Below, piece by piece: positions 3,513 through 41,253 of a DNA stretch of 64,000 nucleotides (positions within the stretch are counted from its first letter, which is position 1; each line of letters opens with the position of its first letter). The stretch is from Bifidobacterium breve (GTDB taxonomy: Bacteria > Actinomycetota > Acidimicrobiia > IMCC26256 > JAENVU01), in the NCBI GenBank assembly GCA_945865605.1, contig CAMBEL010000004.1:396-64395 (forward strand). The letters run 5' to 3'. The notes beneath the pieces are model-generated. The model was not told the origin of the DNA. It searched no databases and saw only the letters and a program-made list of their open reading frames with translations. Made by a program: the position numbers and the translations under genes.

Positions 3513-4664
3513 TCAGATCCCCTTAGTGAACACCTCTACCGTGTGAGCCCCAAGCCCTGTCGGATCCGTCAATGCTGTCGCCTCAGAGATTCGACTGAGT
3601 CCGGCGAGAGCTTCTAGATCGCCGCGCGCGGCTCCCACTTCCCATGTTGCCCACCCTTCTGCAACCAGAGCATCGATGCCTAGCTCTCGGAGCCAGTCGG
3701 CTTGCGTGGTTTCCGCTGCGTGCGTTAGTCCAACGCGACGAGCTGCGCGGCGCAGTGGTTCAAGCAATACATCCGCCGTGATGTCCTGACTCCCCGGAGC
3801 TTCGAGCGGATCACCACCGGAACCGTGTGCGCGATAGGTACGCAACCACCCTCTACCCCTGCCGACCATCGTTTCGATGTCCGCTGCGTAATCGATGAGC
3901 ACAATCGCTCCTCTACGCATCGGTCCAGCAACGGCTTCGAGCCATGCCTCAATAGCGCGCTGCACCGGAAGGCGCGCACCGACGGGAGCATCGATGCCGA
4001 GCATCCACTCTCCGAGTTCATCGGATACAGGGATCGGTACTTCTAGAAATTTTCCCTCGTCATCAACGCCAACTCGTATCTCGTCCCAACCCCTACCGGT
4101 GCGTTCCACTACGTCGAAGGCAAGGTTGTCGAGAAGTTCGTTTGCAATCACTACTCCATCAAACACGGTCGCAGGAAGTGCATCGAGAGCCGTGACAATC
4201 GGACCGGTTCCCGCGATCCGTTCTACGGGTTCACCGTCGCCAACAGGCTCCGAAGGTCCTAGCGCATACTCAACGGGTTCAATCTCGATGCGTGCGTGCT
4301 GCTCTTCGCGCAATACCGCGCTGCGTTCCACCAACACGTAACGCAACGCTTGCGCGCAATCAGGAACGGATCGCAAAACGTCTCGGCACAAACGCCCATT
4401 GCCAGCGCCGGCCTCGATCACCAAAAACGGGTCCGGTTCCTTCATCAAATGCCAGTAATTATTTATGGCGAGCCCAACACAATGGCCAAACAACGGTCCC
4501 ACTTCAGGACTTGTCAGGAAGTCTGCACCAGCTCGCCCAGCACCGCCTCCCGTCGCAAAAAACCCATAACCGGGTTCGTATAGCGCGGCATCAACGAACG
4601 TCGAGAACGGAATCGGACCCACCCGATGGATTCGTTCTACTAGCCCGGAGAACGAGCTGCTCAC
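3513..4664 (-). CDS. MidA / NDUFAF7-family SAM-dependent methyltransferase (DUF185)
   Basis: Signature FFATGGGAGRAGADFLTSPEVGPLFG followed by the SAM-binding-like VIEAGAGNGRL. The long track ORF (to 4835) overlaps nuoN out of frame. A GTG at 4664, 14 nt after the nuoN stop, is the most plausible start; this start is uncertain. Confidence 0.75.
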   Translation of the reverse strand: MSSSFSGLVERIHRVGPIPFSTFVDAALYEPGYGFFATGGGAGRAGADFLTSPEVGPLFGHCVGLAINNYWHLMKEPDPFLVIEAGAGNGRLCRDVLRSVPDCAQALRYVLVERSAVLREEQHARIEIEPVEYALGPSEPVGDGEPVERIAGTGPIVTALDALPATVFDGVVIANELLDNLAFDVVERTGRGWDEIRVGVDDEGKFLEVPIPVSDELGEWMLGIDAPVGARLPVQRAIEAWLEAVAGPMRRGAIVLIDYAADIETMVGRGRGWLRTYRAHGSGGDPLEAPGSQDITADVLLEPLRRAARRVGLTHAAETTQADWLRELGIDALVAEGWATWEVGAARGDLEALAGLSRISEATALTDPTGLGAHTVEVFTKGI

Positions 4665-4678
4665 GTTGAGACAGCCCG

Positions 4679-6142
4679 TCAGCCGCCGGCGGCGAAGTCG
4701 CCGAGAAACGCAAAAGCCTGGGGATAAACACCGACCGCGAGCACGATCACCCCACAAACACCCATCGCAAAGGTGAGCGCTATCGGCATCTGAACGGGAG
4801 ACGCGTCGGCATCTTCGCGTACCGAATGGAACCACATCTCCCGCGCAACCCGTGCGTAATAGAAGAACGCGATTACCGAACTGACCGCTGCTATTACTCC
4901 CAGCACCGTCGCAGCAGGTGTGCCAGCTTCAAGCACCGATCGGAACATCACGAACTTGGCGAACCAACCAGCGAAAGGCGGCACACCTGCCAATGAAAAC
5001 ATGAACACGCTCATCAACAGCGCCAACCATGGCGCATACGAACCTAGACCTGCATACGACTCGATCTCGGCACTTTTCGTGCGCCGCGCCAAAGTGATAA
5101 CTACCGCAAACGCACCCAGGTTCATAGCGCCATAGATGAGCAAATAGATGATTACTGCTTCGAACGATGCCTTCGCGGCACCACCATCGGCGGCTACTGC
5201 GAATGGAACAAGCAGGAAACCACCTTGCGCGATCGATGAATAAGCAAGCATCCGGACGATATTGGTTTGGCGCAATGCTGCGAGGTTGCCAAGCAGCATG
5301 GATGCTGCGGCGAGAACCCAGATGACAGGCTGCCATGTATCAGGAGCGTCGAAGAAACCGAAATACACGATGGTCAGTAACGCGACAAAGCCACCCGCCT
5401 TAGAGGCGACAGAAAGATAAGCCGTAACAGGGGTCGGTGCTCCCTCGTAAGTATCTGGCGCCCAAAAGTGGAATGGCACCGCACTTACCTTGAATGCGAA
5501 ACCGACGAGCGTAAGGAACACGGCGACGATTAACAACGGTTCGTCGATGGAGGCAACCTTGGTCGAGATCTCGGAAAGCAAGGTAGATCCGGTAAGTCCA
5601 AATACCAGCGACATGCCGTACAACATCAGTGCCGATGAGATCACGCCGATCAGGTAGTACTTGATCGACGCCTCGTTCGACTTGCGGTCATGTTTCCGCC
5701 AACCCGCCATTACAAATGTCGGAATTGAAATCGTCTCTAGTGCCACGAAGATGCTGATCATGTCTCTTGCTGTCGTCATCACCAACATGCCCAACAGCGA
5801 GGTCAACATCAACACATAGAACTCACCTTGGTAGTAATCGCCATCGCCGATGTAATCGACAGAAATCAAAAGCGTGATGTACGTAGCGACTAGGAAAAAC
5901 CCCTGCATCGTGAGCGCGTATGGGTCCACGACGATTGCACCGCCGAACATCACACGGGTGCCACCGTCCACGGCGAGCGTCACGACAGGGACCATCGCAG
6001 CGAGCACGCCGAAGGTCGCGAATTGTGACGTGCGGAAGCGTCCGCGATATTCGAAGAAGAAGTCGGCGAACAGCACAACAACGATCGTGATCACAATCAC
6101 GATCAGCGGCGCTAACGCATGGAAATCCCAACCGGGATTCAT
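4679..6142 (-). CDS. nuoN: NADH-quinone oxidoreductase subunit N (operon 1, EFG-less set)
   Basis: 487-aa polytopic membrane protein with the antiporter-like block FHFWAPDTYEGAPTPVTAYL. It is the last nuo gene of the operon. Confidence 0.9.
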   Translation of the reverse strand: MNPGWDFHALAPLIVIVITIVVVLFADFFFEYRGRFRTSQFATFGVLAAMVPVVTLAVDGGTRVMFGGAIVVDPYALTMQGFFLVATYITLLISVDYIGDGDYYQGEFYVLMLTSLLGMLVMTTARDMISIFVALETISIPTFVMAGWRKHDRKSNEASIKYYLIGVISSALMLYGMSLVFGLTGSTLLSEISTKVASIDEPLLIVAVFLTLVGFAFKVSAVPFHFWAPDTYEGAPTPVTAYLSVASKAGGFVALLTIVYFGFFDAPDTWQPVIWVLAAASMLLGNLAALRQTNIVRMLAYSSIAQGGFLLVPFAVAADGGAAKASFEAVIIYLLIYGAMNLGAFAVVITLARRTKSAEIESYAGLGSYAPWLALLMSVFMFSLAGVPPFAGWFAKFVMFRSVLEAGTPAATVLGVIAAVSSVIAFFYYARVAREMWFHSVREDADASPVQMPIALTFAMGVCGVIVLAVGVYPQAFAFLGDFAAGG

Positions 6143-6146
6143 GGCC

Positions 6147-7655
6147 TCATCCGCCGTACAGCTTCATGACAGCACCGTTGGTGATACCAAATATTGCTTG
6201 CGGATAAATTCCGAATACCACGATGCCGATCAACATCGGCGACCAAGCGAGCCACTCGATCTTGGAAACATCATGAATGTGCGCTTCGGCGAACTCGGGT
6301 TTCGGCGTTCCAAAGGCGACGCGTTGGTACATCCAAAGCAAGTATCCGGCCGCGAGAACCGTGCCTATGGCGGCGACAACCATGAAAATTCGGAATGTAG
6401 TCACATCTAGACCCGGAGCCGGTTGATATGCCGAAAGAACCGCTGGGAACTCACCCCAGAATCCGGCTAATCCCGGAAGTCCGAGCGATGCCATCACACA
6501 GAACCCAAATATCCAGCCCATCTTTGGAGCCGAAGTTAGAAGCCCGCCCAGACGGCTCAACTCACGTGTCCCGTAGTTGTGCTGTACGGAACCGGCGACG
6601 AAGAACAACATTCCTGTGATGAGTCCGTGCGCAACCATGCCGAAGATGGCCGCGTTTATGCCGAAGGCAGTGAGAGTCGCGATGCCGAGCATGACAAACC
6701 CCATGTGGGACACCGACGAAAACGCAATGAGGCGTTTCATGTCCGTCTGCGCAAGGCAACACAATGCGCCGTAGATAATACCTACGACTGCGAGCAGACC
6801 AATCCATGGTGCCCATGTCTCAGCGGCATGCGGCAATGTCGGCAATGCGATGCGGATGAACCCGTAAGCACCAAGCTTCAGGAGAACGGCCGCCAGCAGC
6901 ACGGAGCCAACTGTTGGAGCTTCAGTATGTGCGTCTGGGAGCCAAGTGTGGAACGGGAACATTGGCACCTTGATCGCGAAACCAAGAAATAGACCAAGAA
7001 AGATCAGGTTCTGTGTGTTGTGCGCAATATCAATTCCGGCTTTCGCCGTAAGCGAGGGGATCTGGAACGTTCCAGCGAGGAAGAACAGCGCCAGGAATCC
7101 CAAGAGCATGAGTGCTGATCCGAACAGCGTGAACAAGAAAAACTTGATCGATGCATACTCGCGGTTCGGTCCTCCCCAAACACCGATCATGAAGAACATC
7201 GGCAGCAAAACGATCTCGAAGAAGACGAAGAAGAGGATCAGATCTTCTGCAAGGAACGTGCCGTTCATTCCGACTTCGAGTAGCAGAATGAGCGCGAGCA
7301 GCCCTTTCGGGTTATGCGGTTCAGGGAAGTGATTCCACGAGTAGACGATGCACAGAACTGTTACGACCATCGAGAGAATGAGCATCGGGAGTGAGATGCC
7401 ATCTACACCGAGGTGGTACCGAGCCTGGATCAGATCAATCCACGAATCGTTGACGCGGAACTGCATTACTCCCGTGTTGGAGTAGTCGAAGTCCGCGAGG
7501 ATCCCTATACCTACGGCGAGCGTGACAAGGGAAGTCAACAGCGCCACAAGCTTGATGGCGTTCTCCTTGGCGCGCGGGATGAACAGGATGATGACCATCC
7601 CGATAGCGGGTAAGAAGATCGCAAGGGTCAGCGCCCAATCCTGGAACCAGTTCAT
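6147..7655 (-). CDS. nuoM: NADH-quinone oxidoreductase subunit M (operon 1)
   Basis: Contains the block FPFHTWLPDAHTEAPTVGSVLLA. ATG at 7655 is preceded by AGGAGA and follows the nuoL stop at 7669. The longer track ORF to 7730 overlaps nuoL. Confidence 0.9.
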   Translation of the reverse strand: MNWFQDWALTLAIFLPAIGMVIILFIPRAKENAIKLVALLTSLVTLAVGIGILADFDYSNTGVMQFRVNDSWIDLIQARYHLGVDGISLPMLILSMVVTVLCIVYSWNHFPEPHNPKGLLALILLLEVGMNGTFLAEDLILFFVFFEIVLLPMFFMIGVWGGPNREYASIKFFLFTLFGSALMLLGFLALFFLAGTFQIPSLTAKAGIDIAHNTQNLIFLGLFLGFAIKVPMFPFHTWLPDAHTEAPTVGSVLLAAVLLKLGAYGFIRIALPTLPHAAETWAPWIGLLAVVGIIYGALCCLAQTDMKRLIAFSSVSHMGFVMLGIATLTAFGINAAIFGMVAHGLITGMLFFVAGSVQHNYGTRELSRLGGLLTSAPKMGWIFGFCVMASLGLPGLAGFWGEFPAVLSAYQPAPGLDVTTFRIFMVVAAIGTVLAAGYLLWMYQRVAFGTPKPEFAEAHIHDVSKIEWLAWSPMLIGIVVFGIYPQAIFGITNGAVMKLYGG

Positions 7656-7668
7656 TGCGCTTGTTCTC

Positions 7669-9741
7669 CTAGCTGAAGATGACGAGCGACAGGGCCAATA
7701 CCCCGACCGCTCCAAAAAGCATGAGCGCATAACGCTGCACGCGACCGGACTGTACGTATCGCAAGAGACCGCCTACGTTCCCCGTCTCTTGGGCAATGCT
7801 GTTGACTGCTTTGTCGACCACGTCTTGGTCTACAAAGCGATAGGTGAGACGACCGAGCGCGGCCGAGCCGCGCCCCGCCGCGTTGACAACTCCATCTATG
7901 ACGTTTTGATTCAACCAATACGCTGCCCTAGCAATCGGCCCCTTGATCCCGGCGACAATGCCTCGCTCGTAAAGGTGATCTAGGTAGTACTTGTTCATAA
8001 GGAACGAGTGACCGGCCTTCGCCGCGCCACTTCTATCGGTTAAACCCTTAAGCGCGCGCAACTCGCGCCGGTCTACCCAGAAAAACCCTCCAATGCCGAT
8101 AGCGATCACAACAATCGCGAACGACAGCGCTGCTAGAGCGACATCGAATTGTGGTGTCAACACTTCGGGGAACGCTTCTCCATGGGGCTCTATGTATTCC
8201 TTGAACTTCTCGATCCCAAACGCTGAGGCATTCGCGAGTCCTGCAAGAACACTGAATACTGCAAGGACAATCAGCGGGATGATGATGGGCTTCGGTGATT
8301 CGTGGGGATCTGCGTGGCCGCGGTACTCACCGAAGAACGAGAGCCAAACACAACGCGTCATGTATGCGGCGGTTAGGAAAGCGCCGACAAGTCCGACAAC
8401 CATAAAGATCTCATAGCCGCCTTGTCCGGCGGTTGCCAGGATTTCGTCCTTCGACCAGAAGCCGGCGAGCGGGAAAATCCCAGCCAGCGCGAATGAACCG
8501 ACCATGAACGTCCAGAATGTGACCGGCATGTGTTTCCTGAGGCCACCCATGTCCTTCTTCATATCGAAGGAGTGATGCGACCCAGAGTGAGCAATCGATC
8601 CTGCACCCAAGAATAGAAGTGCCTTGAAGAACGCATGCGTGAACAAGTGGAACACCGCGCCAACCCATGCGCCAATACCCAACGCCATCACCATGTACCC
8701 AAGTTGGCTGATGGTTGAGTACGCAAGCACCTTTTTGATGTCATCCTGCACGAAGGCAAGCGCAGCCCCGATAAGAATCGTGATCCCGCCGACCAGCGCC
8801 ATCGGGTTTACGCCGCCGTCTTCGATTGAGAACCCTTGCCAGAACACGCCGTACATACGCGCTCCGAGATACACACCTGCGACGACCATTGTTGCGGCGT
8901 GGATGAGAGCAGACACTGGGGTCGGCCCTGCCATTGCATCTGGCAACCACGTATGCAATGGGAACTGGCCGCTCTTACCGATTATCCCAACCAGCAAGCA
9001 CGAAGCGCCAACCATCCAGATGGTGTGTCCACCATGTCCTTCTAGGGCGAGCACGTTGATTTGAACTATGTCAAAGGTTTGGCCAGCTGCAAAGAAGGTG
9101 ACAATCACTCCGATCATGAGTCCTATGTCACCGGTACGCGTCGTTAAGAACGCCTTGAGCGCGGCATTCGTATTCTCCTTTTCTTCCCACCAATGGCCAA
9201 TGAGCATGAACGAACAAAGACCTACAAGTTCCCAACCTAGAAGTAGTTGCAATGTGTTTGGAGCAACGACCAGCGTGAGCATCGACGCCGTGAACAGCGA
9301 GAGCGCAGCGTAGAAGTACGTGTATCGAACATCACCGTGCATGTAGCTCGTCGAGTAGATGTGCACGAGTAACGAGATCAGAGTGACAACAAAGAGCATC
9401 ATCACGGCCAGGCCATCGATCTGTGTCCCGACAGCAACTTCTAAAGTGCCAATCCGAAACCACTCGACAGTGTTGATGACTGGCGTGATTGCAACGCCCT
9501 GTTCAGGATTGGCCAACAATCCCTTGCCGATGGCCCGAACTATCCCAAGCCCATGTTCACTAACGGTTTCGTCTACCCGCTGTATCCACTGGACGGCGAC
9601 GATGCACGACAGAACGAAGGAGCTTGCAATCGCCGCGATCCCAATCTCAGAACCTTGCCGCGGCATTTTCTTGCCAAAGAACAAGATCAGCGCGAAAGAG
9701 ACGACGGGGATAGCCGGAATGAGCCAGGCGAAATTCATCAT
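7669..9741 (-). CDS. nuoL: NADH-quinone oxidoreductase subunit L (operon 1)
   Basis: 690 aa with the block [28 protein letters not shown] and a long C-terminal region consistent with the lateral helix. Confidence 0.92.
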   Translation of the reverse strand: MMNFAWLIPAIPVVSFALILFFGKKMPRQGSEIGIAAIASSFVLSCIVAVQWIQRVDETVSEHGLGIVRAIGKGLLANPEQGVAITPVINTVEWFRIGTLEVAVGTQIDGLAVMMLFVVTLISLLVHIYSTSYMHGDVRYTYFYAALSLFTASMLTLVVAPNTLQLLLGWELVGLCSFMLIGHWWEEKENTNAALKAFLTTRTGDIGLMIGVIVTFFAAGQTFDIVQINVLALEGHGGHTIWMVGASCLLVGIIGKSGQFPLHTWLPDAMAGPTPVSALIHAATMVVAGVYLGARMYGVFWQGFSIEDGGVNPMALVGGITILIGAALAFVQDDIKKVLAYSTISQLGYMVMALGIGAWVGAVFHLFTHAFFKALLFLGAGSIAHSGSHHSFDMKKDMGGLRKHMPVTFWTFMVGSFALAGIFPLAGFWSKDEILATAGQGGYEIFMVVGLVGAFLTAAYMTRCVWLSFFGEYRGHADPHESPKPIIIPLIVLAVFSVLAGLANASAFGIEKFKEYIEPHGEAFPEVLTPQFDVALAALSFAIVVIAIGIGGFFWVDRRELRALKGLTDRSGAAKAGHSFLMNKYYLDHLYERGIVAGIKGPIARAAYWLNQNVIDGVVNAAGRGSAALGRLTYRFVDQDVVDKAVNSIAQETGNVGGLLRYVQSGRVQRYALMLFGAVGVLALSLVIFS

Positions 9742-9746
9742 GTTCG

Positions 9747-10046
9747 TCAGCCGCTCATCTGGTCTAGTTGGTCAAGATCAGGACTTGAAATGTTGCGATA
9801 AATCAAAAGCACGATCGCGAGGCCTACCCCAACCTCTGCGGCGGCGATGGTAATTACAAACAGCGCGAACACTTGGCCCGACGTCTCGCGCAGGTATGCA
9901 GAAAATGTAATCAGGTTGATATTGACTGCGTTCAACATGAGCTCGACACTCATCAGCACGAGCACTCCATTACGGCGAGCAAGAACTCCGTAAACACCAA
10001 TGCAGAACAGCACGGCCGCTAACACCAGGAACTGCGCGACCATCAT
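9747..10046 (-). CDS. nuoK: NADH-quinone oxidoreductase subunit K (operon 1)
   Basis: 99 aa with 3 TM segments. Contains the motif [10 protein letters not shown] ... [12 protein letters not shown]. Confidence 0.9.
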
Positions 10047-10561
10047 CAGTCTCTCCTCGCGAGCACGACTGCTCCGATGAGCGAAGCCAAGAGCAGTATT
10101 GACACAAGTTCAAATGGCAGCACGTAGGTCGAGAAGATCGACTCCGCAAGCGTGCCAGCCCGGCCGTTGTTGACCAGCTCTGAACCTTGTGGTCCGGTGA
10201 TGTCTATCTTCGAATCACCGAAAGCCTGGATCAACAGCGTGGACAACACACCGAGGAGGAATAGCGCCACCACCGCGCCCGCTAGCCGCTGGTCGTTGTC
10301 AAGGCTGAGGTCTTCGCGCATCGGAGCACGCGTGAGCATGATGCCGAACAGGAACAAGATGATTACAGCGCCGATGTAGATCAACACCTGGACCCACGCA
10401 ACGAACTCTGCTGCCAGGAGAATGAACTGCGCCGCCGAACCGGCGAGTACTACGACTAGATAAAGCGCGGCATGCACGAGGTTGTTGGAACGGACTACGC
10501 CGATCGCAGCGAGAACCATCGCGACAGCCAGGATCCAGAAGACAACGTTTTGAGCAATCAC
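10046..10561 (-). CDS. nuoJ: NADH-quinone oxidoreductase subunit J (operon 1)
   Basis: 171-aa membrane protein between nuoI and nuoK, with start and stop overlaps to both neighbours. Confidence 0.85.
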
Positions 10562-11040
10562 TTCTTCTTCACTTCCGCGCCAATTTCAAGTGGCTCGGGT
10601 TCATGCACGCCTGACATCCACTCACCGAGTTTGGTTTTGTCATGCAGCAAATCTGCGATATTCGGCTCGGAATACTCGTACTCGGGGCTCCAGAACAAAG
10701 CGTCGAACGGACAAACCTCAACGCATATCCCGCAGTACATACAGAGCCCGTAGTCAATATCGAATCGATCTAAGAGGCTGACCGCCCGAGGCTGACCGCC
10801 TTCTCTGCGCGGAGGACGTTGTTCTTTATGTCCTTCGATATATATGCACCAGTCCGGGCATTGACGCGCGCACAGCATGCAGACAGTGCAGTTCTCTTCC
10901 TTGAGTGCAATGACTCCACGCGCGCGCGGCGGCGGGTCTTCGCGTTCGTGTGGATACTGCACCGTTACCGCTGGTTTCATCATGGTGCGGAACGTCACAC
11001 CGAGTCCGCTAATGACTCCTGGGATCTTTAGTTTCTTCAT
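10558..11040 (-). CDS. nuoI: NADH-quinone oxidoreductase subunit I (operon 1)
   Basis: 160 aa with two ferredoxin-type motifs, [12 protein letters not shown] and [12 protein letters not shown]. Confidence 0.92.
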
Positions 11041-12077
11041 CCGACGGCCACCTTAAGGATCCCTGTAGCGACGATGTTGATCAGGCCGATCGGAATGAGC
11101 ACCTTCCAAGCGAGGGACTGCAGTTGGTCCTCGCGCAGGCGCGGATATGTGAACCTCACCCAGAACATCAGGAAGGCGATGGCCATCAATTTTACGAAAA
11201 GCACGATCGGGCCAAGCAGTTCAGCTGTGGCGCCGTGAACACCAGGTATTGCCCATCCGCCGAGAAAGAGCGTTGCTGCCAACGCTGCGAACGCGAACGC
11301 TGTACCGAACTCACCGATGAAGAAAAACAGGAAACGAAACCCTGAGTACTCGACCATGTAGCCGGAGATCAGTTCGCTCTCTGCTACTGGCATGTCGAAT
11401 GGGGGCTGTGTGAGTTCGGCTTGCGCGGCGACTAGGAACAGAGCGAAGCCGATGAATTGCGTGAAAATAAATGGGTTACCTATAGCCGTGATACCAAAAA
11501 TCGATCCGTCCTGTTGGGCGGTGACGATGCCCTGAAGGCTCATCGTTCCGGCCTGGATCACGACCCCGACAACAGCGAGCAGCAATGGAAGTTCGTACGC
11601 AATTAGTTGGCCGGCTGCGCGCAACGCGCCGAGCAGCGCGAACTTGTTGGAGCTAGCCCACCCGGCCATCAAGACACCGATGACCGACAGGCTCGACACG
11701 GCGAGCGCGTAGAAGACGCCCACATCTAGGTCCTCGACGATTGTACGCGGGCCCGCGGGGATTACGAGGAAGATCAGGAAGGTCGACATCACGATTACCG
11801 CCGGTGCCATCGCGAAAACTCTGCGATCAGCTTCGGCGGGCATGATGTCTTCTTTTTGCAGGAACTTGAGACCGTCGCCCACTAGTTGGAACCACCCGTG
11901 GAAGCCGCCGGGATCCATTGGCCCAAGACGACTCTGCATGTGGCTCATCATTTTCAGCAGGAACGTGTAGCCAAGAACTAACGCTCCGAACGGAATGATT
12001 GCGAGCACAAGAATCGTCTTGATCGCGAGGGTAGAACCCCAGCCAATGTCAAGAGCGAGAGTCGCTAGAACACTCAT
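11037..12077 (-). CDS. nuoH: NADH-quinone oxidoreductase subunit H (operon 1)
   Basis: 346-aa polytopic protein with [15 protein letters not shown] (the NuoH/ND1 loop) and [14 protein letters not shown]. Confidence 0.92.
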
Positions 12078-13264
12078 CGGTCGATGTCTCCGAGAATGAA
12101 GTACAGGCTTCCGAGGACTGTCACAACATCGGGAACGTATAGGCCGCGCAACAACCAGGGCAGGATGGAAACGTTGCTAAAACTCGCCGACCGAATCTTC
12201 ACGCGGAATGGCCCTATCGCTCCCTTGGAAACGACGTAGTACCCCATCTGTCCCAACGGGTTCTCGGTCTCTACCCACACTTCTCCAGCGGGAACCTTGA
12301 TGATGCGCGGGACCTTGGCCATCACGGGACCCGACGCAAGGCCATCTAAAAGTTGCAAAACCATACGTACTGACTCGCGGGTTTCCTGAAGCCGCACCCA
12401 ATACCGCGCGAACGAATCGCCGTCTTGATGTGTCCAGACCTTGAAATCCAACTCGTTGTAGGACAGGTAGGGCTTTCCGTCGCGACGAAGGTCCCAATCG
12501 ACACCGGATGCGCGCAGGTTTGCTCCTGAAACGCCATAGGCCGCGCCAAGTTCGGCCGGGATGATTCCGACGCCGCGCGTACGCGCTTGGAAGATCTCAT
12601 TACCTACGAGAACATCTTCGAAGTCGTCGCATCCGTCGAGGATGCGCTTCATGGCGGCGCGACACTCCACGATCCATCCCCATGGAAGATCGTCCTTGAC
12701 GCCTCCGATCCGGTTGAAGTTGGGATGGAAGCGACCACCAGTAGCACCTTCGATGAGATTGAGGACGTGCTCGCGATCGCGGAAGCCCCAGAAAGCCGGT
12801 GTCAATGCGCCAACCTGCAGACCCATCTCTCCGAGGAATAAATAGATAGTGGCGATGCGTGACAGCTCTGTAAGGAGAGTTCGGATGTGCTGTGCGCGCT
12901 GTGGCGCTTCGATCCCCATTAGTTGTTCGGCGGCATGGATGAATGGAACTTCATTAGCGAATGAACTCAGCCAGTCGATTCGATTGATCAAGGTCGTGAT
13001 CTGCGGGTACGTGCGAAATTCGGTGAGCTTCTCGTAGCCGCGATGCATGTAACCGATAACTGGGTCAGCCGCGATTACGCGTTCTCCATCGAGACGCACA
13101 ACCAGTCGCAATGTTCCATGCGTTGCTGGGTGCTGCGGCCCCATGTTCAGGATCATGTCTCCGGTATCGAGTTCAACTGCGAGACGTGCGTCTGCGAGGG
13201 GATTCAAAGACCCGGGCTCTACTTCGAACCCTGGCAATTGCGATGGAGGCTGAGTGGTTGTCAT
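12074..13264 (-). CDS. nuoD: NADH-quinone oxidoreductase subunit D (operon 1)
   Basis: 396 aa with NMGPQHPATHGTLRL, GYMHRGYEKL and the C-terminal ILGDIDR. It abuts nuoH directly, so no nuoE/F/G lie in between. Confidence 0.93.
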   Translation of the reverse strand: MTTTQPPSQLPGFEVEPGSLNPLADARLAVELDTGDMILNMGPQHPATHGTLRLVVRLDGERVIAADPVIGYMHRGYEKLTEFRTYPQITTLINRIDWLSSFANEVPFIHAAEQLMGIEAPQRAQHIRTLLTELSRIATIYLFLGEMGLQVGALTPAFWGFRDREHVLNLIEGATGGRFHPNFNRIGGVKDDLPWGWIVECRAAMKRILDGCDDFEDVLVGNEIFQARTRGVGIIPAELGAAYGVSGANLRASGVDWDLRRDGKPYLSYNELDFKVWTHQDGDSFARYWVRLQETRESVRMVLQLLDGLASGPVMAKVPRIIKVPAGEVWVETENPLGQMGYYVVSKGAIGPFRVKIRSASFSNVSILPWLLRGLYVPDVVTVLGSLYFILGDIDR

Positions 13265-13917
13265 TCTCCGCCCTCCGCGTCCACAACGCCCGGCATCGGT
13301 TCAACGTCTACAAGGCCGGGCCACGGCTTAACTTCGCGAGCCAGCAACGGAAAGTCTTTGCGCAGGGGGTGGCCTTCGAATCCGCCAGGCAAATACAAGT
13401 TGCGAAGGCTCGGATGGCCATCGAAGACGATGCCGTACATCTCCCAACATTCACGTTCGTGCCAGTCGGCACCTGGATAGATAGCAACCCAACTCGCGAT
13501 GCGCGGGTCGGTTTCATCGACGTCGGACTTGATCGTGACTCCCCAATGACGACTGGTCGACTGCACGTGTCCAAAAACTTGGAAACGTCCTGCCGATCCC
13601 GTTACACCGAAAGTCATTTCTGTCGGCTGTACCGGTGCGCTGAGATCTGAACCTTCTTGGCCGTCTGGGCGAGTAACCGGTTGCCAGTCGATGCCCGAAA
13701 TAAACGACAGGTAGTCACACTCGAGTTCACCCTTGGCGAACTCTGCGGCCGGTGCCCAAGAGTCCGGCTTTACGCGGATAACAAGTGTTCCGAAACTGTC
13801 TTCCCACGCCAGGATGCCGTCACCAAGAGCTTCGCCTAAACGGGCAGCGAGAACACCAACCACTGGGTCAGGAATATCAGCTTCGGCAGTTTCGACTGCA
13901 ACAACATCGTCAGACAA
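13261..13917 (-). CDS. nuoC: NADH-quinone oxidoreductase subunit C (operon 1)
   Basis: Contains the 30-kDa-subunit block [26 protein letters not shown]. The track ORF to 13965 overlaps nuoB by 56 nt. TTG at 13917 or a GTG further in is more likely; the start is uncertain. Confidence 0.85.
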
Positions 13918-14437
13918 CTTCGACTGGCTCCCCGCGCCAACGCGCCACCAACTCGTCGTTTCCAAGTCCTTCTTGTTGGATACGTTCTTGCAGCATCACA
14001 ACTGCATCGAGCAGCGCTTCTGGGCGAGGCGGGCAACCGGGTATGTAGATATCGACCGGAATGACTTGGTCTACGCCCTTGGTCACCGAGTACGAGTCCC
14101 AATACGGTCCCCCGCAGTTCGCGCAACTGCCCATCGAGATCACATATTTTGGATCGGGCATCTGTTCGTAGAGACGCTTGATCGCAGGGACCATCTTGTC
14201 TGTAACGGTTCCCGAGATGACTATGAGGTCAGCCTGACGCGGGCTTGCAGGAAACGGGATTACCCCGAGTCGCATCATGTCGAAACGCGGGCTCGCTAGT
14301 GCGGCACCCATTTCGATCGCACAGCATGCAAGGCCCCACTGAAACATCCAAAGCGAGTACTTGCGGCTGTAGTTGAGTAACCATGTCACCGGCTTGAGCG
14401 GCTTGCGGCTGAGAACGCCTTTCTCTACTAGGCCCAT
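13910..14437 (-). CDS. nuoB: NADH-quinone oxidoreductase subunit B (operon 1)
   Basis: 175 aa with the N2-cluster cysteine blocks [21 protein letters not shown] and IPGCPPRPE. Confidence 0.93.
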
Positions 14438-14790
14438 CGCAACACGCCCTTACGCCATGCGTACACCAGCCCAAGCGCTAGCAACACGATGAACACAATC
14501 ATCGATACCAACGCCTGAACACCGAGTTCTTCAACACGCACTGCCCACGGAAAAATAAATACTGCTTCAACATCGAACATCACGAACAGCAGCGCATACA
14601 CGTAGTACCGAACATTGGATTGGCCGAATGTGCCAACCGGGTCCGAACCCGCTTCGTACGTGATGTACTTCTGCGGCTGAGGGCGACGCGGCCGGATTAG
14701 GGATCCGAGGCCAAGCATGCCTCCAACCATCACAAGCGCTGCGCCGATGAGCACGGCTACCGCTAGATACTGCCGGTAGTACTCAGTCAC
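14428..14790 (-). CDS. nuoA: NADH-quinone oxidoreductase subunit A (operon 1)
   Basis: 120 aa with 3 TM segments and the block [22 protein letters not shown] start with GGAGAG upstream. Confidence 0.88.
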
Positions 14791-27242: not shown

Positions 27243-28529
27243 CTACCTGTCCACCTCGCCCAAGATCGGATCAACGCTAGAGATCACGGCGACGGCATCC
27301 GCAACGAGGCGATCTTCCATCATGGGTCCCATCGACTGCAGGTTGTAGAAGGAAGGCGCACGGACGTGCATGCGCGTTGGCTTGCCAGTGCCATCAGAAA
27401 CGATGTAGCAGCCAACCTCTCCGCGCGGAGACTCAACCGACACATATGTCTCACCCGCAGGAACTCTGAATCCTTCTGTGAACAACTTGAAGTGATGGAT
27501 CAATGCTTCCATCGACTGATCAATGCGTTCGCGTGGTGGCGGAGTGATCTTTTTGTCCTGCACCCGGTAGTCACCTGGCGGCATCATCTCTACACATTGA
27601 CGAACGATCTTGATTGATTCGGCAATCTCTGTGAGGCGAATGCGATACCGATCGAAACAGTCGCCGTTCTGCGTGTAGATCACGTCGAAGTCGACCTTGT
27701 CATAGGCAAGGTACGGCTGAGCTTTACGAAGGTCCCATGCAAAACCTGTCGACCGAAGGATCGGTCCCGATACCCCAAGAGCGAGAGCCTGCTCGGTTGT
27801 TATGACGCCGACGCCAACAGTTCGCTCGATCCAGATTGGGTTACCGGTGAGGAGTGTGTCGTAGTCCCCGATGCCAACTTCGACTTTGTCGCAAAGTTCG
27901 AGAACAGCGTGCTGCCAACCGTCAGGTAAATCGGCTGCCACGCCGCCGGGACGCACAAAGTTGTGGTTCATGCGAAGGCCGGTGATCATCTCAAGAACTC
28001 TGAGCGTCTCTTCACGCTCACGCCAGCCGTAGAGCATCATCGAGACCGCGCCAATGTCCATTCCGTTAGACGCTTGGAACAGCAAATGACTTGCCATCCG
28101 ACTGAGCTCGGCGAGCATCATCCGAATCCATATGGAGCGTTCTGGAACCTCTACATCGAGAAGCTGTTCGACTGCCATTGAGAAGACGATTTCGTTCGCA
28201 ATCGGCGACGCGTAGTCCATGCGCGTGACGTTGGTGCACCCCTGCACGTAGGTCAGTTGCTCACCCGTTTTTTCCATGCCGGTGTGCAAGTAACCAATCA
28301 CTGGTTTCGCTCGCACGACGGTCTCACCGTCGAGTTCCATCATTACGCGCAACACGCCGTGCGTAGATGGATGCTGCGGGCCCATGTTGATGATCATGGT
28401 TTCGCCGTCGCCCTCGAGCTCGGGCCATACCGTTCCCGTAACAACAAGTTCGTGGCTTGCTTTTAGTTCTTGCGCGCCTTCGTCGGTCTGGCGGCTTAGA
28501 CGTTCGGTTTCGTTAACAACTTCGTTCAT
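27243..28529 (-). CDS. nuoD: NADH-quinone oxidoreductase subunit D (operon 2)
   Basis: Contains NMGPQHPSTHGVLRV, GYLHTGMEKT and the C-terminal ILGEVDR. ATG at 28529 has AGGAGC 8 nt upstream. The track ORF begins at GTG 28571, inside the duplicated spacer. Confidence 0.92.
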   Translation of the reverse strand: MNEVVNETERLSRQTDEGAQELKASHELVVTGTVWPELEGDGETMIINMGPQHPSTHGVLRVMMELDGETVVRAKPVIGYLHTGMEKTGEQLTYVQGCTNVTRMDYASPIANEIVFSMAVEQLLDVEVPERSIWIRMMLAELSRMASHLLFQASNGMDIGAVSMMLYGWREREETLRVLEMITGLRMNHNFVRPGGVAADLPDGWQHAVLELCDKVEVGIGDYDTLLTGNPIWIERTVGVGVITTEQALALGVSGPILRSTGFAWDLRKAQPYLAYDKVDFDVIYTQNGDCFDRYRIRLTEIAESIKIVRQCVEMMPPGDYRVQDKKITPPPRERIDQSMEALIHHFKLFTEGFRVPAGETYVSVESPRGEVGCYIVSDGTGKPTRMHVRAPSFYNLQSMGPMMEDRLVADAVAVISSVDPILGEVDR

Positions 28530-28536
28530 AACGCCT

Positions 28537-28636
28537 GCTCCTGGCCCTGCGGGCCGGGCCGCTCTGGCCACGCTCCGCTCATGATTTCCGCTCCTGGCCC
28601 TGCGGGCCGGGCCGCTCTGGCCACGCTCCGCTCATG
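28537..28636. repeat. 53-bp-period tandem duplication (two 47-nt identical copies) in the nuoC2-nuoD2 junction
   Basis: gctcctggccctgcgggccgggccgctctggccacgctccgctcatg occurs at 28537..28583 and again at 28590..28636. The same peptide PAPGPAGRAALATLRS therefore appears in two plus-strand track ORFs. Confidence 0.95.
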
Positions 28637-29229: not shown

Positions 29230-29796
29230 TTAGGTGGCCTGCGAGATTGAGACGGGCATGCGGGGTGTGCCAGCTGGCGGCTCAGAAACTTGAATCGCCG
29301 CACCACCGGTTGGCGAAACTTCACGACGCTTTAGCAACTCGCCAGTTCGGATTTGTTCGTGCAACGTGAGGATGCCGTGCATGAGCGTCTCTGGACCTGG
29401 GGGGCAACCAGGTACGTACACATCGACGGGAACAATCTGGTCGACGCCTTGCACGATGGCGTAGTTGTTGAACATGCCGCCAGAACTTGCGCACACTCCC
29501 ATGGAAATGACCCACTTGGGTTCAACCATCTGGTCGTATACCTGACGCAGCACGGGAGCCATCTTCTGCGACACGCGTCCCGCGACAATCATGAGGTCTG
29601 CTTGGCGCGGACTGGCGCGGAACACTTCCATTCCGTAACGCGCAAGGTCGTAGTGCGCTGCACCTGTTGCCATCATCTCAATGGCGCAACATGCAAGACC
29701 GAATGTTGCGGGAAAAACACTGTTGCGGCGCGCCCATCGAACAACGTCTTCGAGACGACCGGTGAGAAAGTTGTGTGGGACAGCGTCGAGTGCCAC
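29230..29796 (-). CDS. nuoB: NADH-quinone oxidoreductase subunit B (operon 2)
   Basis: Contains the blocks [21 protein letters not shown] and [12 protein letters not shown] at 29796 overlaps the nuoA TAG by 1 nt. The upstream part of the 353-aa track ORF is an out-of-frame shadow of nuoA. Confidence 0.9.
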
Positions 29797-30257
29797 TACG
29801 CGGCTTCTTCTTGTGGTGCGCGTAATGGAGGTGCGGCGACACCTTCGGGAAGTCCGGCCGCGCGCAACACGGGACGAATGATGCGATCGGCAACTTGGCG
29901 CACCGGTCCCCAGTCGAGTGCGCCGACAGAGAGTAGATATGCGAACGGCACGAGGAGAACGATGAGGAAGGTACCCATCAATGCCAATCCATAGCCACCC
30001 AACTCTTCGAAAACGGTCGCGAATGGGTAGAGGAAAATGATCTCGACGTCGAGCACAATGAAGGCCATCGCAACCAAGTAGAAGCGGACCGGGAAGCGTT
30101 CGGCTGGCTCGTTTTCGGGAACGATGCCGCACTCGTATGGCGCTGTCTTCGCACGCGTCGGTCGCTTGACGGTCAGCAGCATTGAGACTTTGAAAGAGAT
30201 GACGACGAAGATGAAGACGAGCATGGTCATCGCCAAGATCGGCAGAAACTGGACCAT
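29796..30257 (-). CDS. nuoA: NADH-quinone oxidoreductase subunit A (operon 2)
   Basis: 153 aa with 3 TM segments and the block [22 protein letters not shown]. It is the first gene of the operon. Confidence 0.88.
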
Positions 30258-30372
30258 GTTCCTCTCCTTTCGCGTTGTCCTTCCGGAGCACGCTGGTGCA
30301 TCCGGTTGTTTCGGGTTCTTCAGACTTGTCCTGCGGCGCCGCAGGCTACCCCGCGATCCGGCCGGTAATGCA

Positions 30373-31574: not shown

Positions 31575-32885
31575 CTATGGCTCCGGGAGAACAGCGACGA
31601 TTCTCGATGCCAACTTGTAAGCCGCCTCTGCCGGTCCTAACTCTTCGGGCCGTAAGAGGTTGGCCATAATCCGCAGCACCCACTCCATAAGGGTCTTTGA
31701 CCGGAAACCTACGCGGGTCAATTCCCGCATAACCGCGGGATTTCCGATGGCCTTCACAAATAAGCGTGCCACCTTGAAGTAGAGCCCATATACCTCGTCT
31801 AACCGCTCTGGATACCGGGCCAACGCCAGCCCATCGCCTGTTACCAAAGCCTCATCTACCGCATCAGCCACCATGCGGGCAGTCTCGTACGCATACGCGA
31901 TGCCCTCACCGTTGAATGGGTTGATTGCGCCGACGGCATCACCCGCGACGATCCAGGTAGGTCCGGTTTTTGGAAGTACGGATCCGCCTGTGGGCAATTT
32001 GCCACCAGTCCACGGGCCATCGGCTGTATCGGTCGAGATGCCCCAATAAGCAGGGGCGCTCGCCGTGAACGCTTCCATCAGCTTGGTTGTGTTGACGGAC
32101 TTGAAGCCGGTGAATGTGTCGAGGAGTCCCGCCCCCACATTTATGGTGCCATCGCCAACGGGAAAAATCCATCCATATCCGGGCATATGGTTCCCATCGC
32201 GGTCCCGAAGGTCTAGATGGCTTTCTATCCATGGGTCATCGTGCATGTCAGAGCGGTAGTAACCCCGAATCGCCATTCCCATGGGATACGAGCGATCGCG
32301 TGAGGTGCCCAGGGCGCGCCCAAAACGGGAGTTCGCGCCGTCAGCAACAACGACATACCGAGCCGATACCGTCTCCACCGTGCCTGTTTCTTTACGGCGG
32401 ATAGCCGCCCCGGTCACCAGGCCACCTTCAAACACAGGCTCGAGGGCCTCTGCCCCTTGCCACAACGTGGCGCCAGCCTTAACCGCCCGCTCGGCCACCA
32501 TCTGATCCAGATCTCTACGTCTAACTACATATCCATGGGCCGGCAGGGTCGGGTGTTCTGGCCACTCCAACTCGAGGGTTACCCCGTGGGCGATCGAGCG
32601 CAACCCGTCATACCGGTGGAACTCACTCAAAGGCTCCGCTAGGCCAATGTCACAAAGTTGTCGCACTGCCCTTGGGGTGAGGCCATCTCCGCAGGTCTTT
32701 TCGCGCGGGAAATGCTTCTTCTCAACCACCAGAACTCGGTGGCCCCGATCGGCAAGCCAATAGGCGGTAGCTGCACCGGATGGACCGGCCCCGACGACCA
32801 GAGCATCGTAGGTATCCCGCTTCGGTAATGGCATATGCGCATCGTCGCGCGGATCGGGGGCGGACGGGGTACTGCAGGTCGGCAT
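31575..32885 (-). CDS. geranylgeranyl-reductase-family FAD-dependent oxidoreductase (MenJ-like candidate)
   Basis: Contains the dinucleotide fold YDALVVGAGPSGAATAYWLADRGHRVLVVEKK, then the hallmark PREKTCGDGLTP of geranylgeranyl reductases. Start is uncertain: ATG at 32885 has GGGGGAAAG upstream, and the track ORF begins at 32930. Confidence 0.8.
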   Translation of the reverse strand: MPTCSTPSAPDPRDDAHMPLPKRDTYDALVVGAGPSGAATAYWLADRGHRVLVVEKKHFPREKTCGDGLTPRAVRQLCDIGLAEPLSEFHRYDGLRSIAHGVTLELEWPEHPTLPAHGYVVRRRDLDQMVAERAVKAGATLWQGAEALEPVFEGGLVTGAAIRRKETGTVETVSARYVVVADGANSRFGRALGTSRDRSYPMGMAIRGYYRSDMHDDPWIESHLDLRDRDGNHMPGYGWIFPVGDGTINVGAGLLDTFTGFKSVNTTKLMEAFTASAPAYWGISTDTADGPWTGGKLPTGGSVLPKTGPTWIVAGDAVGAINPFNGEGIAYAYETARMVADAVDEALVTGDGLALARYPERLDEVYGLYFKVARLFVKAIGNPAVMRELTRVGFRSKTLMEWVLRIMANLLRPEELGPAEAAYKLASRIVAVLPEP

Positions 32886-33015
32886 AGGTCGTTCTTTCCC
32901 CCGACCCGTCGATGTATCCTGCGCCGACATAGCGTGGTATCAAACAACGTCAATACTGAGGTTCTGGGCGCGCAAAAGTGTCGCGACTGGACCAACTAAG
33001 GAGATCCAGCAGCCA

Positions 33016-33928: not shown

Positions 33929-33986
33929 AACGCAAACTCGTTCGGCGACTTTGCCGAACTCGAACAGAAAAGTAGGAGACACACTC

Positions 33987-34784
33987 GTGGCCAGTGCCAA
34001 CGGGAGCAACGGGAGCGGCGGCATCGGAACGAAGTTGCGCGCGCGCTCGAAAAAACTCGGAGAGCAGGTAGGCAACTCGCAGGTAATGAACTCGATCTTC
34101 CGCCCGGGTTCCATCTTTAGACACGGCTACACGGATAGCCCACGTAACCGCTCATACGTCGTGATGAACAGCGTGCTGTACCACCTTCACCCTGTGAAGG
34201 TGAAACGACATGCAGTCAAGGTGAGCTACACGCTTTGTCTCGGCGGGCTTTCCTTCTTCTTGTTCATCTTGCTCACGGTCACCGGCATCTTCCTCATGTT
34301 CTTCTACCGCCCAACCGAGGCACTCGCTTGGAACAACATTCAGCAACTCGAAACTGCTGTGTGGTTTGGTTCCATGGTTCGCAACATGCATCGATGGGGC
34401 GCTCACCTAATGGTGCTCACCGTGTTCATGCACATGAGCCGCGTCTTCTACCACGGTGCGTACAAGGCACCGCGCGAGTTCAACTGGGTGATCGGCGTAA
34501 TCCTGCTCACGCTCACGCTCATGCTCTCGTTCACCGGATACCTATTGCCGTGGGACCAACTGGCACTTTGGGCAGTGACAGTAGGTACGAACATGATGGG
34601 TTACACGCCAGTATTCGGTGGCCAAGTTCGTTACGCACTTTTGGGTTCCAAAGAAATCAGCGGCGATACTTTGTTGCGTTGGTACACCTTGCACGTGTTG
34701 CTACTGCCGTTCATCATTGTGATCTTTATGGCCGTCCACTTCTGGCGAGTTCGTAAGGATGGGGGCATCAGTGGACCTCTCTAA
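33987..34784 (+). CDS. cytochrome b6-type subunit (cytochrome b N-terminal half, 4 TM)
   Basis: His pairs lie in MVRNMHRWGAHLMVLTVFMHM and TLHVLLLPFIIVIFMAVHFWRV. FFYRPT and PWDQ-type blocks are present. A CLGG cysteine lies before TM1 at 34236..34238. GTG at 33987 has AGGAG 8 nt upstream; the track ORF starts at 33951. Confidence 0.88.
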   Translation: MASANGSNGSGGIGTKLRARSKKLGEQVGNSQVMNSIFRPGSIFRHGYTDSPRNRSYVVMNSVLYHLHPVKVKRHAVKVSYTLCLGGLSFFLFILLTVTGIFLMFFYRPTEALAWNNIQQLETAVWFGSMVRNMHRWGAHLMVLTVFMHMSRVFYHGAYKAPREFNWVIGVILLTLTLMLSFTGYLLPWDQLALWAVTVGTNMMGYTPVFGGQVRYALLGSKEISGDTLLRWYTLHVLLLPFIIVIFMAVHFWRVRKDGGISGPL

Positions 34785-34796
34785 GGGGAAGCGCAC

Positions 34797-35648: not shown

Positions 35649-35661
35649 GAGTCTTTAGCCA

Positions 35662-36528: not shown

Positions 36529-36568
36529 TCATCATGAACCACCACCGCATCAACACTTCGAGGCGACC

Positions 36569-41217: not shown

Positions 41218-41253
41218 AAGGCTAGGCCGAGCGTCGCCTCGATTCCCAACGAT

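Follow-up and report, generated by a model that had tools for sequence, protein, structure and literature searches.

A MidA-family methyltransferase gene at the end of an EFG-less complex I operon in Acidimicrobiia and its putative connection with an arginine of NuoD

The window discussed here, meaning the whole stretch of DNA that was analysed, comprises 64,000 nucleotides (nt) of contig CAMBEL010000004.1 (assembly GCA_945865605.1, positions 396 to 64,395), which is deposited as Bifidobacterium breve and carries a GTDB lineage within the class Acidimicrobiia. Two complex I (nuo) operons lie in tandem on the same minus strand of this window. The downstream one is an 11-gene set devoid of nuoE, nuoF and nuoG, referred to below as EFG-less, and its last nuo gene is followed by a gene for a protein of the MidA/NDUFAF7 methyltransferase family. 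This gene, its attachment to the EFG-less operon and its putative partner, the NuoD subunit encoded by the same operon (NuoD1), are the subject of this report. The EFG-less set and the MidA gene together form 12 consecutive minus-strand open reading frames (ORFs) running from 14790 to 3513, with the gene order nuoA-B-C-D-H-I-J-K-L-M-N and then the MidA gene:

14428-14790, minus strand: nuoA1, first gene of the EFG-less operon (PF00507, 115 bits)
13910-14437, minus strand: nuoB1, subunit of iron-sulfur cluster N2 (PF01058 match)
13261-13965, minus strand: nuoC1 (PF00329, 121 bits)
12074-13264, minus strand: nuoD1, short-type 49-kDa subunit of 396 amino acids (PF00346 match)
11037-12077, minus strand: nuoH1 (NF004741, 303 bits)
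10558-11040, minus strand: nuoI1, ferredoxin-type subunit with 2x[4Fe-4S] (NF004537 and TIGR01971, below the equivalog cut-offs)
10046-10561, minus strand: nuoJ1 (ORF; Oxidored_q3 in orthologues)
9747-10046, minus strand: nuoK1 (ORF; Oxidored_q2 in orthologues, locus L004)
7669-9741, minus strand: nuoL1 (NF005141, 591.6 bits)
6147-7730, minus strand: nuoM1 (TIGR01972, 552 bits)
4679-6142, minus strand: nuoN1, antiporter-like subunit (TIGR01770, 393 bits; stop codon at 4679-4681)
3513-4664, minus strand: MidA gene, 12th and last of the operon (383 amino acids, GTG start; PF02636)

The Pfam and NCBIfam scans behind this list cover nine proteins (NuoA, B, C, D, H, I, L, M and N), and the identity of nuoJ1 and nuoK1 follows from ORF position and from the Oxidored_q3 and Oxidored_q2 matches of their orthologues in related loci. 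An earlier reading of the letters alone, hereafter the sequence-only reading, had described nuoA to nuoN as contiguous and without E, F and G, and both the ORF coordinates and the family assignments agree with this: A, B, C, D and H to N stand side by side, and nuoD1 overlaps nuoH1 by 4 nt, so that nuoE, nuoF and nuoG are absent between them. Its placement of a MidA-type ORF 14 nt past the nuoN stop is likewise exact, with the stop codon at 4679-4681 and the GTG start at 4664. In an alignment with bovine NDUFS7, NuoB1 has the cysteines of cluster N2, including the PGCPP motif. NuoI1 matches NuoI models, and Fer4_7 and Fer4 domains are found in its orthologues in related loci. NuoD1 belongs to a short type, in which about 23 residues are absent relative to Thermus Nqo4 residues 314-337; PRK12322 is its best NCBIfam model, and its alignment with the MBS subunit 6u8y_L spans the full length. 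Directly upstream of these genes, a complete nuo operon of 14 genes, nuoE, nuoF and nuoG included, extends from about 30257 to 14905 on the minus strand, and 114 nt separate its nuoN from nuoA1.

The ORF at 3513-4664 contains GADFLTSPEVGPLFG and VIEAGAGNGRL. PF02636 (Methyltransf_28) is the former DUF185 and represents the MidA family, COG1565. The ORF scores 140.6 bits against this profile, far above the gathering cut-off of 23.3, and residues 62-314 align to profile positions 1-244 of 249, which settles the family assignment made by the sequence-only reading. An NCBIfam scan of the MidA protein yielded no matching model. Among proteins of the PDB, sequence matches were obtained with 4f3n (Burkholderia COG1565, 6.6e-32), 1zkd (Rhodopseudomonas DUF185, 3.2e-25) and Dictyostelium MidA, 5ztz (1.2e-15). 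The glycine-rich S-adenosylmethionine (SAM) motif VIEAGAGNGRL is aligned with VMEFGAGTGKL of 4f3n, and further family motifs correspond as DFLTSPE to DFVTAPE, ANELLDN to GNEVLDA and QDITA to QDITA. N175, E176, D179 and D294 are invariant among 31 relatives. Identity between the window protein and the eukaryotic enzyme is only about 22%.

An AlphaFold2 model of MidA, built on 31 relatives, reached a predicted local distance difference test (pLDDT) value of 91.3 and a predicted template modelling (TM) score (pTM) of 0.90. The modelled fold has the seven beta strands of a methyltransferase core, to which the extra domains specific to the family are added. Foldseek paired it with 4f3n (TM 0.79, E 6.6e-29), 5ztz (TM 0.79, 1.3e-25) and 1zkd (TM 0.72), and the best unrelated methyltransferases reached only about TM 0.4. 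Membership of the window ORF in the MidA/NDUFAF7 family, as judged from profile and model, is thus solid, and its activity as a SAM-dependent methyltransferase is putative. The identical MidA protein is recorded in several metagenome assemblies. Two atypical database proteins were encountered: a 580-residue protein (P0262) considered as a fusion of a NuoN C-terminus with a MidA N-terminus is most simply a gene call reading through the short spacer, and in an 867-residue protein (P0139) the MidA domain is accompanied by an AAA ATPase domain.

In human cells, NDUFAF7 dimethylates Arg85 of NDUFS2 (Rhein 2013, PMC3829151). In the mature human chain 5xtd_Q (430 residues), residue 85 is the R of LLHRGTEK, so the position in the HRGxEK motif, which the sequence-only reading had named, is confirmed. 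NuoD1 has the motif GYMHRGYEKL, and gap-free alignments with Thermus Nqo4 and fly NDUFS2 place its Arg75 (codon 13040-13042) in the column of human R85. Among 48 NuoD1 orthologues, the motif GYMHRGYEK, including the arginine, is invariant (48/48). The same arginine is symmetrically dimethylated in complex I from bovine, human, Pichia and Paracoccus denitrificans sources (Carroll et al., PMC3750175).

The neighbouring 14-subunit operon provides the comparators for this site:

27243-28571, minus strand: nuoD2 of the 14-subunit operon (TIGR01962, 554 bits)
29230-29790, minus strand, start approximate: nuoB2 of the 14-subunit operon (alignments with 8e9g_B and 2fug_6)

The mechanically called nuoB2 ORF is longer (29230-30291, minus strand, 353 amino acids) and begins with a long N-terminal stretch rich in Arg and Ser, which runs across nuoA2 (29796-30257) in a different frame. 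As the conserved NuoB domain starts only at about residue 168, the true start almost certainly lies far downstream of the ORF start.

NuoD2 reads GYLHTGMEKT, with Thr97 (codon 28281-28283) at the position of the NuoD1 arginine. The codons of this Arg/Thr difference, which had been pointed out from the sequence alone, are both confirmed, and the NuoB subunits show the reciprocal arrangement. NuoB1 carries threonine at the swap position (ISGTVTDKM, aligned with VAGTLTNKM of bovine NDUFS7), as do 34/34 NuoB1 orthologues. NuoB2 carries arginine there (VAGRVSQKM) and matches VAGRLSKKM of Thermus Nqo6 residue for residue (R83; 2fug_6); its arginine is also aligned with that of M. smegmatis NuoB (8e9g_B). 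Such an arginine swap has been described before. In Thermus, Nqo4 has a threonine, and the space is filled by Arg83 of Nqo6, the NuoB counterpart, while the bovine, Yarrowia and E. coli enzymes combine a D-subunit arginine with a B-subunit threonine (Hameedi et al., PMC8042128; Haapanen and Sharma, PMC5552823). With threonine in the HxG motif of NuoD2 and arginine in NuoB2, the 14-subunit operon shows the Thermus-type swap. As read from these alignments, one cell therefore encodes both arginine solutions, the 14-subunit enzyme being of the Thermus/Mycobacterium type and the EFG-less enzyme of the mitochondrial type. Given NuoD2 Thr97 and the NuoB2 arginine, the canonical complex would offer MidA no target arginine.

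The conservation of the link between nuoN and the MidA gene was followed from both sides. From the MidA side, with one genome per GTDB species, the best 80 of 591 relatives were taken, and their neighbouring genes were located by tblastn with the window proteins. These best 80 are all Acidimicrobiia-type metagenome-assembled genomes (MAGs), with 44-98% identity to the window MidA; the 98% identical locus (L007) is that of a MAG from Lake Baikal, Acidimicrobiia bacterium Baikal-deep-G23, so that the window can be assigned to an uncultured freshwater member of this class. A nuoN of the EFG-less type lies upstream of MidA on the same strand in 79/79 loci that have upstream sequence. The two genes are directly adjacent in 76/79, with an estimated spacer of at most 337 nt (median about 30 nt), and are separated by one or two opposite-strand genes (1.1-1.8 kb) in the other 3/79. 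In every related locus that reaches nuoD, this gene immediately precedes nuoH. On the 3' side of MidA, the genes for acetyl-CoA synthetase (acs) and a HAD phosphatase are in many loci set apart from it by 1-5 kb of inserted DNA, or have been replaced. Of the two flanks of MidA, the one shared with nuoN is therefore the more stable.

Conversely, metagenomes were scanned with NuoN1; the 80 loci obtained included 33 close and 29 distant informative contigs. Where NuoN identity was at least 55%, MidA was found downstream in 32/33 contigs, in 31 of them within 350 nt. At 44-54% NuoN identity, this fell to only 8/29; in four of these eight, MidA adjoins nuoN and has diverged to 29-34% identity, and in the other four it lies 3-5 kb from nuoN behind unrelated genes. 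A profile search with the most distant MidA representatives, aimed at other phyla, returned the same actinobacterial clade and two loci of identical architecture. The sequence-only reading had left open how often MidA homologues follow EFG-less nuo operons; the 79/79 MidA-side loci and the 32/33 close nuoN relatives answer this for the clade covered. Judged from these loci, MidA is tightly linked to the operon in a large clade, but the relatives of the EFG-less operon do not all share this link, and the association of MidA with complex I is a genomic one.

Outside this class, the gene for the D subunit may itself be detached from its operon. The Nonomuraea, Bacillus and Sinorhizobium meliloti data come from PLSDB records, several of which are whole chromosomes labelled as plasmids. 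Chromosome-sized records of this kind, a trap for counts of plasmid genes, include NZ_LT559118.1, NZ_CP093325.1, CP090106.1, NZ_CP119142.1 and others; among the mislabelled chromosomes are 11.85 Mb from Nonomuraea, 5.5 Mb from Bacillus, 3.7 Mb from S. meliloti ('pSymB') and 2.2 Mb from Neisseria.

In Nonomuraea gerenzanensis (Streptosporangiales), an orphan nuoD, with no other nuo gene within 26 kb, has the gene of a MidA homologue (PF02636, 80 bits) 4.3 kb upstream of it. The product of this nuoD is 51% identical to the window NuoD1 and only 38% identical to the window NuoD2. The remainder of the second set in this genome (nuoA2, nuoB2, a nuoC2-like gene, nuoH2 and nuoI2-N2) is located 740 kb from nuoD2 and has no nuoD between C and H. 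This matches the published arrangement in Streptomyces, in which nuoD2 lies outside the nuoA2-N2 operon (PMC3765725, PMC8388888). The neighbourhood of nuoD2 recurs in Thermoactinospora rubra and a Streptosporangium, and consists of MidA, a few genes partly on the opposite strand, an Aminotran_5 gene, nuoD2 and an acyltransferase gene. The distance between MidA and nuoD2 is 4-6 kb in these three Streptosporangiaceae genomes. Their MidA proteins match the window MidA with 57 bits (28% identity), compared with 84 bits for the rhizobial and 106 bits for the Bacillus homologue. Since they are no closer to it than these, the two associations would not descend from one recently shared block. The persistence of MidA beside the D-subunit gene after the operon has broken up is the best available evidence, as far as gene order can suggest it, for NuoD as the partner of MidA.

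The orphan nuoD2 regions also show features of their own. Their coordinates are 5710-13307 of locus L092 (465.7-473.3 kb of NZ_LT559118.1), 10001-18689 of L093 and 10001-17489 of L094. The gene before nuoD2 codes for a class-V aminotransferase resembling cysteine desulfurases, and the gene after it belongs to Acyl_transf_3. The aminotransferase gene directly precedes nuoD2 in Nonomuraea and Streptosporangium, and an opposite-strand DoxX gene intervenes in Thermoactinospora. A desulfurase-like gene is thus paired with the gene of a subunit that borders an iron-sulfur cluster. The region is flanked by panC/coaX and folK/folB genes. The Nonomuraea nuo2 operon itself (L095, 9281-24713; 1.209-1.225 Mb of NZ_LT559118.1) contains extra genes, namely an ORF resembling M48 peptidases, which follows nuoA2 and precedes nuoB2, and, between nuoH2 and nuoI2, three ORFs (582, 134 and 371 amino acids) that match no Pfam family. 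They could be candidates for accessory or electron-input subunits. Peptidase_M48 genes are found near EFG-less nuo operons at three places: inside this nuo2 operon (L095, 9701-11395), directly after nuoN on a metagenome contig without MidA (L157, 7595-8515), and, in an Acidimicrobiia genome, about 8.5 kb past MidA (L004, 19689-20537). This recurrence may be a coincidence.

Several observations weigh against a functional tie between MidA and Arg75. The equivalent arginine of E. coli complex I (in NuoCD) is unmodified (PMC3750175), therefore an arginine alone is no proof of methylation, and what carries information is whether a MidA gene is present. What MidA does in prokaryotes has been described as 'only inferred in silico', and the Wolbachia protein has been claimed to methylate DNA (PMC12455994). 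The tight adjacencies all come from one class, in which shared ancestry inflates the counts, and 21/29 distant nuoN contigs (44-54% identity) have no MidA in the 1.2-6 kb available downstream. In Streptosporangiaceae, opposite-strand genes split MidA from nuoD2, so that the two form no operon. In S. meliloti, the MidA homologue is flanked by lgt and pgeF, well away from nuo, and Bacillus sp. N5-665, which has an EFG-less 11-gene nuo operon, carries its MidA homologue about 980 kb away from it.

Together, these points would fit a situation in which MidA is kept at the operon merely by inherited gene order, acts on another substrate, be it a protein or DNA, and leaves Arg75 unmodified as in E. 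coli. Other features of the data make this distinctly unlikely. The nuoN-MidA junction persists down to 44% MidA identity, and in four loci down to 29-34%, despite reshuffling of the genes further downstream. In Streptosporangiaceae, a very divergent MidA is a neighbour of the orphan nuoD2 and not of the remaining nuo2 genes; in a genome of about 10 Mb, the chance that two given genes come to lie no more than about 6 kb apart is roughly 1/1000. Moreover, in the cases examined, the linked complex is always of the type with arginine in NuoD and threonine in NuoB. The link between MidA and the EFG-less operon may be regarded as the clearest genomic evidence so far for a role of the MidA family in bacteria.

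The quinone site of the EFG-less complex departs from the canonical one. In gap-free alignments, Trp98 of NuoD1 (codon 12971-12973) occupies the column of Tyr87 of Thermus Nqo4, and Gln150 (codon 12815-12817) occupies that of Asp139; the equivalent of Nqo4 His38 is kept. Tyr87 is a ligand of the quinone head group and a proton donor, and Asp139 is the partner of His38 (PMC5552823). Among Acidimicrobiia NuoD1 orthologues, the tryptophan is present in 47/48 and the glutamine in 48/49. NuoD2 of Streptosporangiaceae has tryptophan, as NuoD1 does, but glutamate at the Asp139 position, and the window NuoD2 and Bacillus NuoD retain the canonical tyrosine and aspartate. A third replacement concerns NuoB1, where Pro64 in IPFPASPRQ (codon at about 14246-14248) stands in place of the conserved arginine of the NuoB/PSST loop. 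This proline is found in 31/31 orthologues, and Nonomuraea NuoB2 has alanine at that position. The window NuoB2 keeps FRASPRQ, the EFG-less Bacillus enzyme also retains the NuoB arginine, and in bovine PSST the residue at this position, Arg77, is hydroxylated (PMC3750175).

Tyrosine, aspartate and NuoB-loop arginine are thus all replaced, and the EFG-less complex may accordingly not reduce quinone in the textbook manner. On the evidence of these alignments, the electron path to N2 is conserved and the predicted acceptor-site chemistry is not that of the textbook. A literature search found no description of tryptophan at the Nqo4 Tyr87 position. The sequence-only reading was accurate in all that it said of the sequence, and overlooked the missing canonical quinone-site tyrosine and aspartate.

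The remodelled site also bears on the electron donor. The 11-gene set might borrow NuoEFG from the adjacent operon, as both operons lie in tandem on one strand only 114 nt apart. This idea has been raised before (PMC4453560). The result would be two NADH-dependent isozymes, with MidA adapting the Q-module of the second. Such sharing seems unlikely here. NuoD1 is of the short type, which is also present in the EFG-less Bacillus enzyme examined, and it is without the proton-donor tyrosine and the aspartate of NADH:quinone oxidoreductases, which argues for a functionally distinct enzyme. In addition, the donor of 11-subunit enzymes is generally held to be ferredoxin or another partner (PMC11238625, PMC3144371).

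The same replacements touch on the residue at which MidA would act. The genetic link shows a coupling of MidA to the complex or to NuoD, not to a residue, and with Trp98, Gln150 and the NuoB1 proline the N2/quinone region is unusual, so that the surroundings of Arg75 differ from those in mitochondria. MidA might thus modify the EFG-less complex elsewhere than at Arg75, or serve mainly as a methylation-independent chaperone for the assembly of NuoD1 with NuoB1. Either is very unlikely, however, considering that the HRGxE motif has an invariant arginine, that the only established substrate of the family is this very arginine (PMC3829151, PMC3750175), and that an intact SAM-binding motif speaks against a purely structural role.

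These considerations lead back to the EFG-less operon as a unit in which MidA is probably a dedicated methyltransferase for Arg75 of NuoD1 or an assembly factor. The sequence-only reading had suggested a dedicated modification or assembly factor for the second complex, and this idea gains support from the family and fold of MidA, the arginine column and the enrichment of MidA at such operons. According to the proposed mechanism, MidA and the subunits of the EFG-less complex would be translated from one transcript. This putative co-transcription is suggested by the 14-nt spacing and the lack of a terminator-like site; a promoter and terminator scan showed no site of either kind in the nuoN-MidA spacer, but it gave no signal above shuffled background and, beyond the spacing, speaks neither for nor against co-transcription. 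MidA would then bind newly made NuoD1 and methylate Arg75 of the HRGxE motif. The mark would probably be symmetric dimethyl-arginine, as in mitochondria and Paracoccus. The arginine is situated where NuoD meets NuoB, and only a few angstroms separate it from iron-sulfur cluster N2. Methylation may take place before or during the joining of NuoD1 and NuoB1, as described for NDUFAF7 in human cells (PMC3829151), and it may help NuoD1 to join NuoB1, tune N2 in the finished enzyme, or both. The canonical 14-subunit complex would be independent of MidA, with Thr97 in NuoD2 and the positive charge supplied by the NuoB2 arginine.

A wider proposal combines these elements. The EFG-less complex may represent an ancient and distinct actinobacterial branch of complex I, in which replacement of the quinone-site proton donors (Tyr87 by Trp, Asp139 by Gln or Glu, the NuoB arginine by Pro or Ala) has altered the substrate chemistry or the direction of operation. 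Its maturation would rely on a dedicated MidA whose gene has kept its tie to that of the D subunit even where the operon broke up, and arginine methylation would have a catalytic, redox-tuning role in addition to one in assembly. This is a tentative possibility, still rather doubtful as a whole. If true, arginine methylation would be older and widespread in complex I enzymes with a NuoD arginine.

Compared with the mitochondria of human, bovine and Dictyostelium cells, the window system has in common the PF02636 family, the fold (TM 0.79 to 5ztz) and the HRGxE target column, and both mitochondrial NDUFS7 and NuoB1 have threonine at the swap position. It differs from the NDUFAF7 system in that an actinobacterium carries the MidA gene in the very operon that encodes the presumed substrate, and in that the complex lacks the NADH module and has tryptophan in place of the quinone-ligand tyrosine; the activity of MidA here is a prediction. 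A bacterial precedent for the modification is Paracoccus denitrificans, with dimethyl-arginine on Nqo4 at the same residue (PMC3750175). In alphaproteobacteria, the responsible enzyme is likewise only inferred to be a MidA homologue (PMC9006661), and the complex is a canonical 14-subunit NADH dehydrogenase, unlike the EFG-less set of the window. The place of the S. meliloti MidA between lgt and pgeF also differs from its position after nuoN in the window.

Closer to the window operon is the second nuo set of the Streptomyces type, which is EFG-less as well (PMC3765725, PMC8388888). Streptosporangiaceae NuoD2 resembles NuoD1 in its arginine and tryptophan, and the NuoB2 of that second set resembles NuoB1 in its threonine. 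The Asp139 position, in contrast, holds glutamate in Streptosporangiaceae NuoD2 and glutamine in NuoD1. The window operon includes nuoC and nuoD and ends with MidA, whereas the Streptosporangiaceae nuoD2 stands apart with MidA 4-6 kb away. A literature search found no paper linking MidA with nuoD2. The 11-subunit enzymes of Bacillota (Bacillus cereus group, Desulfitobacterium) have the same 11-gene order A-B-C-D-H...N as the window operon (PMC11238625). The EFG-less Bacillus enzyme further shares the short-type NuoD, the NuoD arginine and the NuoB threonine with the window complex, but, unlike it, keeps the tyrosine, aspartate and NuoB arginine of the quinone site. Finally, the 14-subunit operon of the window is of the type seen in Thermus and Mycobacterium complex I (Nqo4 Thr64, Nqo6 Arg83), which has no methylation target.

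The rest of the window contains further genes of respiratory and tetrapyrrole metabolism. Upstream of the 14-gene nuo operon lies a gene for a geranylgeranyl-reductase-like flavoprotein (31575-32930, minus strand), followed by a cytochrome bc-type complex (33951-37834, plus strand) with cytochrome b split into two ORFs, a Rieske protein and cytochrome c. A haem biosynthesis cluster (38975-46271, minus strand) comprises a hemL-like aminotransferase gene, hemB, a cobA/hemD fusion, hemC, hemA and a precorrin-2 dehydrogenase-like gene, and is closed by a gene for a Rex-type redox-sensing regulator. A SAM hydroxide adenosyltransferase of the DUF62 family (SAM_HAT_N and SAM_HAT_C) is encoded at 49648-50499 on the minus strand, about 45 kb from MidA and with no evident connection to it.

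The MidA family, the methyl-arginine, the arginine swap and EFG-less second nuo sets in actinomycetes are already known. The literature search found no paper combining Acidimicrobiia and nuoEFG, and no methyltransferase next to nuo was described in the papers it found. Within the literature searched, the class-wide operon link of MidA with an EFG-less complex I is new, as is the location of MidA near a detached nuoD2 in another actinobacterial order. The same holds for the presence of both arginine solutions in one cell, with a methyltransferase attached to only one of them, and for the invariant or near-invariant tryptophan, glutamine and proline in the predicted quinone site of an EFG-less enzyme. 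The finding overturns nothing, and comparative genomics is its sole footing.

Eukaryotes are the only organisms in which the role of MidA/NDUFAF7 is established, and its role in bacteria has recently been questioned (PMC12455994). The class-wide operon link provides independent evidence that bacterial MidA serves complex I and specifically its D subunit, to which the arrangement with a detached nuoD adds. The window also represents a natural experiment within one cell, in which a complex with a methylatable arginine and its own methyltransferase exists beside a complex that takes this arginine from a partner subunit. The role of the N2-adjacent dimethyl-arginine, whether in assembly or in redox tuning, would thereby become testable without killing the organism, and relatives with NuoD1-type subunits occur in cultivable Streptosporangiaceae and possibly in Streptomyces. 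Loss of the quinone-site tyrosine, aspartate and arginine marks the actinobacterial EFG-less complex as one whose substrate chemistry, and not only its electron donor, may depart from the textbook enzyme. Bacterial MidA gains a testable context outside the proteobacteria, which is relevant to specialists in complex I and in protein methylation alike.

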